Positions 1-61,560 of a DNA stretch of 64,000 bases are shown piece after piece; within the stretch, counting starts at the first letter, position 1, and every line of letters starts with the position of its first letter. A program made the translations under genes and the position numbers. The notes below the pieces were generated by a model. The model had not been told where the DNA came from, did not search any database, and worked only from the letters and a program-made list of their open reading frames with translations. Source of the DNA: Amoebophrya sp. A120 (lineage: Eukaryota > Protista > Dinoflagellata); assembly GCA_905178155.1 (NCBI GenBank), contig CAJINV010000002.1, positions 6,180,476-6,244,475 of the forward strand. Reading direction: 5' to 3'.

Positions 1-1048
1 CGCAGCAAGTGGCGCATCCTCTTCTTCGTCGATCCTTCTTTCAAGCTCACGATCATGGTACACGTAGAAGCTTCTCCGTAGAAGCATCGTGACAACAACA
101 TCCAGACGCGGCCGGTCCCCGTTTCTCAAGGCCGGCTATCAAATGTAAAAATGTCTGGGTCTGGAAGAATACAGACTTGTGATGCGCATTTCAGGACACA
201 GAAAAATTTCTCATGCATAGGTAGCGAAAGCTGCTCAGTTTCCGCCACCAAAATGGGGGATTTGTCATGCGGATTCGGCATTGCGAAAGTTTCTCGAAAA
301 CTGCGATGCTAGAGCTCCCATACCAGACTTTCTGTGTCATGCCAAAACAGCATGACTCTTCCAGACCCAGACATTTTTGCATTTGATACCGGCGCACCAT
401 CGGCGATTTCGTCGGTGATCGCAAATCTGGTTGCGACCCCCTTCGCGGCCGTTTCGAGTATTTTCTTCATGTAGTACTCGAAAACAAGGCCGTAATCCAC
501 GCCGATCTGGGACCTCGCTATCTTGATGGAATGGAAGTAGTCCGCATTTCGGCAATCCAAAATTTGGATGTTCTCCTGGCCCAAGAAATGCATGACTTTC
601 TTCCGAAGAACCTCAGGCAAGGAGCGTCGCTGGTTCGTCAGATTCCGCGTCGCCAGAACACACCAAATGTTGACCTGGTATAATTGAAGACGCTGTTCGC
701 AAAGAACATCTGTCGAGTTTGCAAAGCAATGGGAATTCAAATCTCCAAGTAAGATGCAACAGAGTCACTTGGAAAGAAGAGAAAGATAAACTACTGATTC
801 GGAAAAAAAATATCTAGGACCTGACTCGCCAGCATTTTGTTGGCCGTTCGCTTGTCGAGATTCTGCAAGCGCCCTTCGAGCGATTCCCGGTCCAGGTCGG
901 CAATTTTCTGGACCCACTTTTCGTAGCTCCCTTTGTACCGGAGAAGAACGTTTTCAGCGGTGATTTTTGTTGGCTGGTTCGCCAGCTGCGGCTCCGCAGG
1001 TCCGTTTCCGGCAGGGACGGCTGCGGATGAAGAGGAGGCGGACGACAT
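1..1048 (-). CDS. Unknown-family protein, tandem paralog 1 (3' end outside the window); GT-AG intron 675-820 and introner 137-388
   Basis: The spliced product MSSASSSS...KMLASQ|VNIWCVLATRN...GAP|ALRNGDRPRLDVVVTMLL aligns with the paralogs at 3206-4568 and 5340-6692. Confidence 0.85.
137..388. mobile_element. Introner/MITE family A, 252 bp, TSD CCGGC
   Basis: Ends tatcaaatgtaaaaatgtctgggtctggaag / cttccagacccagacatttttgcatttgata; ccggc at 132-136 and 389-393. Paralogs lack the insertion. Confidence 0.95.
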
Positions 1049-1963
1049 GCTGTGCGTTTGTTCTTCGAAAAATTTACTTTTTCTTCTATCGGCTTTGAAT
1101 ATGACAAACACAAATGAATGCTTTCTTTGGGGTACGAATACGATATTTGAAATGCCTCTAGTGAAAAAACATTAGATCAAAACGGAAGATGGAAGTCTGT
1201 CGGAAAGGAGTGACGTGTCGGTCGAGGGCTCCCTCTTCCAGGGACTAAGTCATCGATCAGCTAGATTCGAACGAACAAGTACAATCGAGGAAGGGGATCT
1301 CTCATCCCGTTGACCATTTGCACTGTCACAACCTAGCACCAGCAGAGTGAATGCTTCACTCCTTTTGCGTCGAACAAAAATGCGCCTCTTTTTTTGCTTT
1401 TTCGACTCGCTCTCGATTGCAGCCAAGCATCAACAGACTTGTAAATACGCTACGGCAATCAAAGAATTTGTGTTGCAGCAAAAACTGCGACCATTTTGTG
1501 TTTTTCGGAAGAGGTAGAAAAAGGACTTGATTCTCATTGTAGTACATGCTTTATTCCTTTCGCTTCATAATCGTGCTCCCACCAACTAGCGGGAAAACTT
1601 TGGAATTAAAAAATGAGGTCTAGATCGGCATATCGTATTCACGGTGCGCGTTTCCATTTGCCTAAGCCTATTCGAATTCAGGGGAACGCAATAAGATATG
1701 CAGTAATTTGCTCCTGCTGCGCGCGACTTTTGGTACATGATCTGTCGTCATCCAACCAGTCTCACTACGATTCCAGCTTGCCGCACGACCGGGTACTTAG
1801 GTGCAGTTAGCTCTTCTGGTGCTACATGCTCAAATATCCTCGAAGTGCCCCACGTGCTCGATTTCGTCTGATGGCAGTTCTTTCCATACTGCTGCGAGTG
1901 CATGTGCTGCAAGCAAGCGATTTATTAGCTGGACTCGTGGATATTGCGCTAGTTGATATTGCC

Positions 1964-2570
1964 TCACTCTTCCTCCTCCTCGACCTCTGCCTCCTCTTCC
2001 TCCTCACCGGAAGGCTCGTCTTCGCCATAAAAAAAATAACCGACCCGCATGGTGAAAGGCAGTGGGTCACCGTTGGAATACCAGTCGCGGCCCTGCTCGC
2101 GGAACCGCAATTTGAACCCGTCCGTTTCGCTCCTGTGCATCAATTGATCAAGCAGCCCGCCGCGGGGGAGTGCAGGATGGAGCGCCTTCATCTGAGCCGG
2201 ATTCAACGGCACGTGCTCACCGCTAGGTAGTTTCGGCGCTTCTGCCATCATCTCTGGTGTGACTACTATCTCGGCAACACCCTTAGCAGCAGACTTTCCT
2301 AGACGATCTACCAGATAATCCGCAACCTCCTTGATCCCGTTCTCTACGGTGTCGGTGAACGATTTCCAGGCGCTACCTCTACTATATCCCAATACTTCCC
2401 CTACGCCCGCAGTTTGGCCGCCTGTTCCCTGCACAGCATGGCGCGCAACGGTGTTGGCATCTTTATCAGCATGGCCAAAGTTCCCCTGGCTGAGGTCAAT
2501 TCGAAGCGGAAGGGAAAGATCTCCAAAAATTCTGCGGGCCAGCTGCGGATGAAGAGGAGGCGGAGGACAT
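1964..2570 (-). pseudogene. Paralog 2 of the unknown family, internally deleted and frameshifted
   Basis: ATG at 2570 gives MSSASSSSAAGP, then jumps out of frame into GDLSLPLRIDLSQGNFGHAD. About 760 bp present in paralog 3 is missing. Confidence 0.75.
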
Positions 2571-58601: not shown

Positions 58602-59761
58602 GGCTCGTCTCGTCGGGGGATCAGTTACAATAGGTTTGAACTATGCCATCGTGGTGGAAAGAGACTGGTTGTACATGGGTAGCACAAGTCGAGGAATTAT
58701 ACATGTTGGGGATGGGGAAGCCATGTTACTCTATTCGACGAGTTAGAAAAATTGTTTGGTAAGCCGGCGTAGTTTAACAACTACGTCATTAGATATGCGA
58801 AACAAACCCGAAATACTATACCTCCGGCAATAATCTCCCGATCTAGTACTTTTTCACAGACCTAAGAGGATATTACACCTGCCTTGTTCCAGCACTCGGA
58901 CCACCCCCTGTCGATTTGAGTAGACCAGAGCGAATTAGACTCGCAGCCGTCACAAGTCGCAAGAACAGCGAGAAGACCCAGAAGAAAAAGGACACAGTAA
59001 GAGTGAGATCACAAAAAAATCGACAGACAGGAAACAAATCACCTCCACGCACTCAAATAAACAGTTCTAGCTCTTTTAACGGCATCGCCTCGATCTCAAA
59101 AATCAGTCGTGTGCCAGTTGATCGCGTTCTCCTGCTCTCGCCACGAAGTATGCCAGCTGTAGTGGAGTAGATCTTCTCCAAGTCAATGAACTTTTAGCTT
59201 TTGCACGATGAAATTGAGAGTAGATAGTGTACGTGTACTAACAAGCGGATCCACATATAGGAAAAGAAATGCTGCCAAACGAAAAGTCACAACAGATCAT
59301 CTTCACACAGACACACACACGAAACTTTCACGATCGAACTGATTGACCACGACTTTTTGGCAAACACGACGTGCATCAGTTGCCCGTTTCTTCTCAGAGT
59401 CAGACCATGCACGCCAAAGCGAAAGCGAAGTCTCGCCGTGATGGTTGATTTAGATTTATTTGTTTTTACTATGATATGAACTCGCACAACTTCAAAACAG
59501 ACATCATAATCATTTTTGGGAGGACAAGAAATAAAAGGCTTTTTAGGCCTTACTACATCTTCATCGTCAAGAAGTTGTGGATCACGAAAAGATCCCTCCG
59601 TCGTGTCGCAACACAGGGCGCTCGTCAGTTCTTGTGCCAGAAAAAGCCATTTCTCAACGTGGTCACTGCGCCGAGCACGCGAACAATCTGTATCTGAATC
59701 ACAACACCTTTTCCAGAAGAAAGACCCCGCCAGAACTACTCTGCAGCAGCTTTCTTATCCT

Positions 59762-61560
59762 CTACTCGATGTCGAAGGCCGGTTTCCCTAGCTTCGAGGA
59801 GGCACTGGCCCCGCCGGTCAACCTCCCCGCCTCTGCCGCTTCGACGGATTTTTTCATCTTCTTCAATTTCGGCGAAGCGACGTGCTCGGGAGCCCCGCCG
59901 CCGCCGATGAAATCGCCGCCGACGCCGAAAATTCCCGGGGACAGATTTTCGTCGTCGTCCTCTTCGGAACCAGAATTGTCCAACCCCTTGTCCTATGCAT
60001 TGCAAATATGTCTGGGTCTGGAAGATGTCAAGCTGTTTTTGCATAACACAGAAGGTCTGGCATGGAAGCCCTAGCATCACAGATTTCGAGAAGGTTCTGC
60101 AATGCCTAATCCGCATGACAAATCCCCCACTATGGTGACAAGAAGTGGGCATCTTTTGCTGCCTATGCATGAGAGATTTGTGTGCGTTGTGAAATGCGCA
60201 TCACAACTTCTACTTCACATCCTTCGAGACCCAGACATATTTGCATTTGATATGTCCTCCTCCGCGAACTGGCCATCGAACCACTCAATGCAATCCCGAT
60301 TCTCGATCGGGTGCTCAAAGTCCACCCGGCGCAGCATGTCCGTCTCGAAATCGATGGCATCAAAAAGAAAAATCGCCCCTCCCCATATCGAAAACGAAAC
60401 CTGTGACGCAGTATTTGAGTACACAGATCGCATTTGTCTTGCTGGAGAGGACTGCAGACCCATGTCAAGCCTGAGTAGAGAGGCTTTGACTTAGGCGCTT
60501 AGCATGAAAAGGGTCCGTGATGTTGGCTCAACAGCATGACAGACAAACCGGCTCCATAATGGGACGGAAGCTGCTGCCCTTGTCTTCTTGCAACACAAAC
60601 GTGACTTGTGACCTCAAATCAGCAACACAAATTTTCGAAAACCTACCTCTTCATCAATATGGGGAGGGGGGATTTTTCCTTGCGATAGATGGTGGCCGGT
60701 CGCTTCATCTCCTCGTCCCAGGCCAGTTGGAGCTCATCATCCTTGAACAAATGCGTCAAGTACCAGCCGCACCGGTAAAACTGCTTTTTGTTGTACAGTG
60801 CGATCATCACGAGCGCGCCGTTGTCCAGTTTCGCGGTTTCCGGCACCAGCGTCATGTCCGGCGCAATGCCCTCCATCACAATCTTCCGCTTTCCGCACTT
60901 CGGGAACGGACCGCACTCGACCTCATCGAGTAACTGCTCCTGCTTCTGCAAGCAGGCGGAGGCGAGCAGATCCGCGATGGTCTTCTCCGTTTTGGAGAAA
61001 GGGTTTTTACTCGTCTTTTTACTCTCCGATTTGGACTTCTTCATCGACGCTTTAATATTCGCGGTAGATGTTGTTGAACTCGGCTCTTTACAAGTCGAGG
61101 TGGACTGCTGGTGCTCTGTAGTAGTGGCAGTAAAACTCGCGGCTTTTGACTGCATTTTCTTCATGGAAGTCGTACTGGAAGCTGCTGTCGTCGTTGTATC
61201 TTGTTTTTTCATCGCCGTGGTTTTTTTCGAGGTGTTTGAGGATTTGGAGCTTTTCGACCTTTTGCTGTTTTTGCTCGCGGAGGACTTGTTGTCGTCGAAG
61301 TTTTCGTCGTAATCTTCAGAATCCATGTCGTCCTCGTCCTCTCCCGAATCGTCCTGCGTGCCGTTCTCGCTGCAGGACTCGGCATCGAAAATGTCCTCCT
61401 GGACCTCCCAGGGCGGGATAAATTTCAACTGCAACTCCAGCGTTTTGGGAAGCGCCTCCATGACCTCGAACGTCACTTCGAGCTTCAGCGGCCCGGTCGC
61501 CGGCGCGTCCACCGCGGTCTCCGGGATCCAGTTCGCGCGCCGAAACTCGATGGCAGCCAT
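59762..61560 (-). CDS. ASF1: Divergent ASF1-like histone chaperone with a long loop insertion and two introners
   Basis: GPLKLEVTFEVMEALPKTLE...EQLLDEVECGP...APDMTLVP...LYNKKQFYRCGWYL...MLRRVDFEHP...IEW parallels ASF1 FEITFEC / DQVLDSVLVGP / EFIRVGYY / INW. Confidence 0.8.
59994..60252. mobile_element. Introner family A, 259 bp, TSD TGTCC
   Basis: Reverse-complement relative of the 137-388 copy. Join AEED|KGLDN. Confidence 0.95.
60358..60687. mobile_element. Introner family B, 330 bp, TSD GATGG
   Basis: Reverse-complement relative of the 14035 copy. Join PATI|DFETD. Confidence 0.93.

Follow-up and report, generated by a model that had tools for sequence, protein, structure and literature searches.

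Why should introns whose interiors mostly cannot be aligned with one another carry the same short word? The question is raised by a 64,000-nt stretch of DNA from Amoebophrya sp. A120 (the window in what follows, with positions counted from its first letter), where introners, that is, repeated elements without coding capacity that are also introns, carry copies of GCAT(G/C)ACAA. A sequence-only reading of this DNA had taken the word for a cis-acting site, bound either by a transposase or by a host factor that marks the segment for removal. We find that the word has a wider form, GCA(T/A)NACA, and that its copies come in same-direction pairs 31-33 bp apart; both the pairing and the wider consensus are additional to what had been noticed earlier. 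In our judgement the paired word is probably a docking site for a protein that mobilises the introners.

Introners of the window and of related loci

Introners were delimited by their ends, independently of the motif. The finder combined TAT-N7-AAAA ends, a 5-bp direct repeat and complementarity of the arms, with a cut-off score of at least 36 (the maximum in shuffled DNA was 33). It gave 16 introners in the window; five more (37175, 39096, 53478, 56044 and 56715, named like all elements here by their first position) were added by hand with the motif list already known. Together the 21 elements occupy 5,885 bp, 9% of the window, and leave 58,115 bp of other DNA. The layout is a TAT start, a run of A at positions 11-15, an ATA end and a flanking 5-bp repeat without sequence preference. 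In the end logo the three bases of TAT have frequencies of 0.98, 0.99 and 0.99 (the signature is itself used by the finder), and A at positions 11-13 has 0.94-0.97.

A wider sample came from a scan with a 20-nt arm sequence, which returned 145 loci (796 kb including overlaps) and is enriched for one arm type. The same arm had no match among viral contigs and, among prokaryote genomes, one chance-like match without the motif. In the related loci the finder detected 377 elements, of which 357 start with TAT. The target duplication is exactly 5 nt in 316 of them and has one mismatch in the other 61; none is longer. The 369 elements of at most 520 bp were kept and grouped with the 21 of the window into 54 clusters, 17 of them with more than one member.

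How far are the families related? The interiors of the three GTCTGGGTCTGG-arm (GTCTGG) families align at 68-76%, and the two CCCCCCTCCCC-arm (CCCCCC) families align with one another. With motifs masked, six of 91 pairs of consensuses reach z>5, so that about 11 lineages are left whose interiors align poorly or not at all. The earlier description of the families as otherwise unrelated stands for these lineages and fails for the GTCTGG-arm and CCCCCC-arm families that align. Common to every family are TAT, a run of A or A/C, and the motif. The inner arms (positions 16-30 from each end) are family-specific in sequence and self-complementary throughout, and in three of nine families the members show covariation between left and right arm (p<0.05, without control for kinship). 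They may act by pairing instead of by sequence.

A word shared by element families

The strict word GCAT(G/C)ACAA occurs 42 times in the window, on both strands, from position 177 to 60198 (30 copies with G, 12 with C); a variant with T adds five copies, and the commonest 9-mer of the whole window is GCATGACAA. Forty of the 42 strict copies lie within the 21 elements and two in the other 58,115 bp, a difference of about 200-fold. The 16 elements scored by the finder hold 32 of the 42 by themselves, while dinucleotide shuffles of the elements (n=300) contain 0.31 strict copies on average and three at most. The two outside copies are at 22192, in a weak candidate element, and at 58512, in an exon as judged by its reading frame. 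Strict copies are missing from three elements (39096, 50688 and 60358), the first of which lacks the wider motif as well.

Family-weighted word counts in the related loci again put GCATGACAA on top. They also broaden the motif, to GCA(T/A)(G/C/T)ACA between T-rich and A-rich flanks; we write this form GCA(T/A)NACA. This wide form is present in 364 of the 369 elements and the strict form in 308; the motif is found in 48 of the 54 clusters. Element-like DNA (129.6 kb) holds 787 strict copies, or 6.07 per kb; the 447 kb outside it hold 64, or 0.143 per kb, where 10.9 are expected. Since the outside copies exceed chance and 35 of the 64 lie near another copy, decayed elements are probably their source. 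The sequence-only reading had judged by eye that the motif is common to the element families and rare elsewhere, and both observations held: its frequency is 40-200-fold lower outside elements.

Pairs of copies three helical turns apart

The most distinct new finding concerns the spacing of the copies. Same-direction copies 31-33 bp apart occur 36 times in the 54 cluster representatives, whereas 5,000 random placements gave a mean of 3.7 and a maximum of 11. Of the 14 family consensuses, 13 show this spacing, as do 10 of the 11 lineages left after collapsing related families; in the window it accounts for 19 of 80 spacings. The sequence between the paired copies is not conserved across families. 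DNA makes a helical turn every 10.5 bp, and 31-33 bp correspond to three turns.

Position within the element is constrained too. The motif is kept out of the first 30 bp: only five of 1,407 wide copies lie 34 bp or less from an end, and there are peaks at 34-40 and 44-50 bp. The internal consensus TTTGTCATGCAAAA shares TGCAAAA with the ends of some families only.

A check of spacing periodicity, which the sequence-only reading had recommended, has two outcomes. The 31-33-bp pairs are there; a longer-range helical phasing of 10.3 bp (p 0.002) disappears once the 32-bp pairs are kept in the null (p 0.58 for collapsed lineages, 0.33 for all 14). Also discarded was a 2.2-kb 'TGT...ACA' element in one related locus (L020), an artefact made of motif copies from two separate elements.

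Conservation over family history and decay after insertion

Pairwise comparisons were made within 14 families, with interior 8-mers of like GC content and free of CpG as the reference. In all 14, motif 8-mers mismatch less often than the reference, at 0.21-0.63 of its rate (p 6e-5). As the sequence-only reading had anticipated, then, motif positions are more conserved than their neighbours, about three times so, which is on a par with the arms.

What happens once an element has been inserted is a separate question. It was addressed with 432 copies found by profile search (401 for the slopes), a procedure that favours copies with intact motifs, so that the true decay of the motif may be higher than given here. 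Intact copies diverge from their consensus by 0.02-0.07 at motif sites and by 0.09-0.30 elsewhere. Where target repeats or ends are damaged, the extra divergence is 0.031 in the motif, 0.035 in the arms and 0.045 elsewhere. Per mismatch in the target duplication, divergence rises by 0.029 +/- 0.004 in the motif, 0.019 in the arms and 0.040 +/- 0.008 in the other interior. The motif has changed at roughly 20% of the background rate over family history, and at roughly 70% of the interior rate after insertion. In trees, partly circular as a test because they were built mainly from variable columns, the ratio of motif change to other change rises from 0.15 on internal branches to 0.40 on terminal ones, with a like pattern for the terminal inverted repeats (TIRs; p 0.92). 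No orthologous or duplicated insertions were found among the related loci.

The motif had been described earlier as maintained even where TIRs have decayed. Overall, this is not supported: decay of the motif rises with decay of the target duplication and of the TIRs (rho 0.25), and no motif copy is left in the decayed element at 39096. A single case of the opposite kind is the candidate at 22145, which retains one copy despite decayed ends.

A candidate docking site for a mobilising protein

What could the pairs be for? Our preferred suggestion, held with moderate confidence, is that paired GCA(T/A)NACA is a putative bipartite, subterminal docking site in double-stranded DNA for a mobilising protein, either the transposase or a DNA-binding partner of it. 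Two domains of such a protein would contact the same face of the double helix at sites separated by three turns, and the bound protein would help to build the machinery for cleavage at the TAT ends. If only copies with intact sites are amplified, the motif would persist while the DNA between the sites drifts until families can no longer be aligned, and the sites would decay once inserted. The intron would be removed by other means, for which pairing between the terminal arms is the likeliest candidate. The evidence points to a role in DNA and mobility over a role in splicing. Of the two binders proposed originally, the transposase side is the one favoured as the reader of a putative protein site common to the families; the marking of segments for removal is not. 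As for the word being the real recognition code of the system, this is plausible where mobility is concerned, if the TAT-N7-A-tract ends are counted in.

The elements belong to a known class. The A120 introners of Farhat et al. 2021 (PMC7789003) and Gozashti et al. 2025 (PMC12130899) have the same TAT, seven variable bases and A run, and likewise short direct repeats, a length of about 250 nt, non-canonical splice sites and co-oriented genes. The GC content of the window is 51.7% (published for A120: 51.2%), and the best protein match of a window exon is to Amoebophrya sp. A25 (93%). The direct repeat at the exon/intron boundary is given as 3-5 nt in PMC7789003, where families are grouped by inverted repeat and overall similarity and where A120 is credited with about 30,000 repeated non-canonical introns. 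Neither an internal shared motif nor a spacing is described in the available text of PMC7789003, of PMC12130899 or of 12 of the 14 supplements to the latter, and the literature searched, which does not extend to subscription papers, yielded no description of the motif in introners.

A precedent for such sites is found in other transposons. The transposase binds the subterminal repeats of Emigrant, a miniature inverted-repeat transposable element, cooperatively and depending on their arrangement (Lemi1/Emigrant, PMC1636448); that paper also cites subterminal repeats of hAT, CACTA, Sleeping Beauty and pogo, and such repeats are proposed there to tune the mobilisation of non-autonomous copies. 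Shared with the introners are short repeated words inside the ends, in both orientations and in a conserved arrangement. Emigrant differs in that its repeats copy half of the TIR and its transposase is known, whereas the introner motif differs from the inner arms that are specific to each family, is common to families with different arms, fills the whole interior, comes in 31-33-bp pairs and sits in elements that are also introns. The motif is a real and strongly conserved feature of a known introner class, apparently unreported so far; judged by its arrangement, it would work like subterminal transposase-binding repeats.

As to the enzyme, the TA...TA ends suggest by analogy one of the integrase type, similar to that of IS3EU/GingerRoot. 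Those elements (PMC10045372, PMC6839031, PMC12730594) share TA...TA termini, terminal inverted repeats and the lack of target preference with the introners, and PMC12130899 lists at least one A120 family as 'Ginger, 5-bp TSD, TA/TA Termini' (TSD, target-site duplication). Since their target duplication is usually 6 bp, and that of the introners here is exactly 5 bp and never 6 or more, we do not file the introners as IS3EU/GingerRoot. The word 'subterminal' is absent from the available text of the GingerRoot paper.

Several points weigh against a docking site for a mobilising protein. A search of about 0.58 Mb of unique related DNA revealed neither a transposase nor an autonomous element, and Farhat et al. 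(PMC7789003) report none of the former in A120. Copies of the motif fill the whole interior and are not confined to the neighbourhood of the ends. The phasing between pairs is not significant. The motif is not a plain copy of part of the TIR, unlike the repeats of Emigrant and Sleeping Beauty, and has only a loose likeness to TGCAAAA ends. Decay after insertion, at about 70% and not clearly 100% of the interior rate (bootstrap 0.97 for lower), leaves room for some host-level constraint, and the tree test is weakened by its circularity. Finally, the 80 loci listed of the 145 share one accession prefix, which means at most one further assembly series and not independent genomes.

A Pfam scan of 26 frames of the window also gave no transposase domain. 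The related loci yielded no long coding element with TAT ends: three long TAT-ended elements (L045, L068 and L005) are ordinary introners with nested inserts and not autonomous partners.

If the suggestion is correct, it would be of practical use: a conserved 8-9-bp word in a 31-33-bp pair would be a precise bait for the mobilising protein, and a family-independent probe for decayed copies and for the missing autonomous element. The paired motif and the self-complementary arms suggest a division of labour, in which the former would serve mobility and the latter removal. The element at 39096, having lost all motif copies, is a good case for deciding whether removal needs the motif. The surprise is limited by the fact that subterminal binding repeats are already known from other transposons.

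Alternative readings

A host factor, bound to DNA during transcription or to the RNA, could flag the segment for non-canonical intron removal. To judge this possibility one has to consider how the introners leave the RNA. In one run presumed to be RNA, the contigs lack at least seven elements among the joints listed, each time the exact element length and 5 nt more. One of these contigs additionally lacks two CT..AC introns and hence is spliced RNA. The unit removed from RNA is the element with one copy of the duplication, and for most elements of the window a deletion of that size, element and 5 nt, reopens a long frame on the minus strand. Three raw RNA runs covered only element-like pieces and not the unique DNA of the window, and an Rfam search of the window gave no match.

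Several facts would suit a removal marker: only six of 130 elements have GT..AG in register, U1 small nuclear RNA was not detected in the A25 and A120 genomes (PMC7789003), wide copies are nearly universal among the related elements (at least one in 364 of 369) with at least two in all seven elements seen spliced, and decay of the motif after insertion is maybe somewhat slower than that of other interior bases. Nevertheless we think such a marker unlikely. The elements at 50688 and 60358 are removed exactly, as the RNA contigs show, with no strict copy, and 39096 is without any copy; on this point the marking for removal proposed by the sequence-only reading was not borne out. Elements capable of GT..AG splicing are no poorer in copies than the rest (24 against 110 elements, p 0.50), and decay of the motif follows age and TIR decay. 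A reader of RNA is further disfavoured by the lack of strand preference. Orientation of the families in genes is random in 11 of the 11 families tabulated (p >=0.12; strand called for 217 of 390 elements), and a bias in one family (20:5) became 22:12, p 0.12, under a codon-based strand call. There are 347 copies of GCA(T/A)NACA on the sense strand and 430 on its complement, and 34 of the 217 elements have no copy in the sense direction.

The motif might instead be bound by a host chromatin or DNA-bending protein, the paired site positioning or bending the DNA for a borrowed integrase that acts at the ends. To this we also give a low probability. It can call on the same sequence evidence as a mobilising protein, on the fact that a transposase is not reported in A120 (PMC7789003) and on the clustering of insertions 40-80 bp from a resident element, which suggests that residents shape the local chromatin. 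But the motif is about as frequent as chance would have it in the non-element DNA of the window (two copies in 58 kb), which a general host site would not be; long-range helical phasing is lacking; and the size of the gap between introners bears no relation to motif position or number (p 0.56, 0.43).

A bolder idea is slightly more doubtful. One bipartite DNA passport, read by a host-encoded protein (domesticated or chromatin), would license all TAT-ended families irrespective of their inner arms, both driving their spread in a genome that lacks a recognised transposase and flagging them for U1-independent removal. If true, that protein, bound during transcription, would couple the birth of introns to their splicing.

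Very improbable, and largely refuted, is the notion that inverted copies matter only through their pairing, as the two sides of a hairpin in the intron RNA or in single-stranded DNA, whatever their sequence. Arrangements such as GTCATGC-N7-GCATGAC do exist in several families, and six of nine family interiors (six members each) fold better than shuffles, at z below -2. Yet the degenerate positions of inverted copies covary in only three of 33 tests at p<0.05 and are complementary in 50 of 106 consensus pairs. In the GTCCCC family the strong copies are all unidirectional and the interior gives no folding signal (z -0.2), yet its opposite-orientation members at 50101 and 50688 are both spliced. 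Moreover, pairing explains neither the direct-repeat spacing nor the use of one sequence across families. Random orientation, the lack of covariation and the missing folding signal of the GTCCCC family together speak against a word read in RNA and against a function through pairing.

That the motif has no function and merely survives from a single repeat-rich ancestor can be dismissed, unless some effect on mutation rate beyond CpG and GC protects the word, since descent alone, likely as a deep common origin of all families is and demonstrable as the kinship of some, cannot give threefold conservation or a fixed spacing of 31-33 bp with a changing spacer.

Introners along the window

The first introner (252 bp, 137..388) belongs to a GTCTGGGTCTGG-arm family and has the motif at 178, 263 and 335, all on the minus strand. 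A CCCCCCTCCCC-arm introner of 323 bp (14035..14357) has two strict copies, and one of the GTCCCC-arm family (279 bp, 16798..17076) has five same-direction copies, with 31-bp pairs at 16830/16861 and 16991/17022. The 263-bp introner at 18856..19118 lies within a protein kinase gene and has a pair at 18898/18930 (32 bp). The next (207 bp, 20033..20239) has two strict and seven wide copies and a pair at 20169/20200; considered a singleton previously, it is a member of a 35-member cluster. It is followed by an introner of 252 bp (20511..20762; pair 20683/20714) and by the decayed candidate of 132 bp (22145..22276), a stop-containing insert in the kinase frame with weak ends, no matching direct repeat and one strict copy at 22192.

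The introner of 311 bp at 37175..37485 has an inner inverted repeat of 47 nt, with pairs at 37302/37334 (minus) and 37404/37436 (plus). Five motif copies had been counted in it and four at 56518; we find four strict copies, or five at one mismatch, in the former, and in the latter three strict copies, or four with the T variant. The decayed GTCCCC-family copy of 450 bp (39096..39545) has no motif copies; deleting it with 5 nt restores the frame, and no GT..AG pair near its ends gives that frame. One strict copy was confirmed in the introner of 193 bp at 42255..42447, which has a pair at 42307/42340 and is skipped in an RNA contig (198 nt).

Four introners are crowded between 49623 and 51297, all of them skipped in RNA. 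The first (425 bp, 49623..50047; 430 nt skipped) has copies at 49665/49696/49728, in steps of 31-32 bp, and a nested insert. Two are of the GTCCCC family: one of 280 bp (50101..50380; 285 nt skipped) with every copy on the plus strand, and one of 282 bp in the opposite orientation (50688..50969; 287 nt skipped) with no strict and two wide copies. The fourth has 263 bp (51035..51297; 268 nt skipped). Next come two introners of 253 bp, at 53165..53417 (pairs 53198/53229 and 53337/53368) and at 53478..53730; the latter has GTTACA arms, as does one of 255 bp at 56044..56298 (pair 56192/56224). The 150-bp introner at 56518..56667 combines a pair at 56560/56591 with inverted copies at 56608 and 56626, and the one of 270 bp at 56715..56984 has one end and the direct repeat partly decayed. 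The last three are of 335 bp (57864..58198; pairs 57997/58030 and 58117/58148), 259 bp (59994..60252; 264 nt skipped in RNA) and 330 bp (60358..60687; 335 nt skipped in RNA), the last with no strict and four wide copies and a pair at 60590/60622.

Nested inserts, neighbours and host genes

Some introners have themselves been invaded. The nested insert of the 49623 introner is 165 bp long (region 49728-49910) and has an 8-bp repeat of the motif core on either side; more inserts lie at L068:11220-11950, L045:3950-4320 and L005:13590-14610 and in L066, L044, L087, L023 and L047. Several have A-rich or short-repeat tails, as retroelements without long terminal repeats do, and those of L005 and L045 are homologous (70%). 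Seven are bordered by an evident repeat of 8-21 bp, and the motif core is part of that repeat every time (joint chance about 0.002, for a feature picked post hoc). Microhomology of the tails to CAT/ATG or to runs of T could explain why they land at the motif.

Introners also tend to be close neighbours. In the loci (L001-L145), 75 of 278 gaps measure 40-80 bp, against 12 of 100-140 bp and eight below 40 bp, and the neighbours are of different families in 95%. Examples in the window are 50047-50101, 50969-51035, 53417-53478 and 56667-56715. This suggests insertion beside resident elements, perhaps with linker DNA as the target.

Elsewhere in the window, tandem related genes on the minus strand (309-1050, 1964-2593, 3206-4600 and 5340-6755) share short stretches; two of their frames were scanned without a Pfam match, and the only recognised introner there is the one at 137. 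GC-rich intergenic regions at 23300-25250, 28900-29750 and 32450-33850 (no Pfam match in four frames) are possibly decayed mobile DNA. The host genes, all on the minus strand, occupy 7888-10953, 17004-22500, 37432-38688, 53673-58400, 60643-61581 and 62533-64000. Their products include a diphthamide synthesis protein, a protein kinase with four element inserts, a thrombospondin-domain protein, a VIP1/PPIP5K kinase-phosphatase with several introners, ASF1 and an FG nucleoporin.

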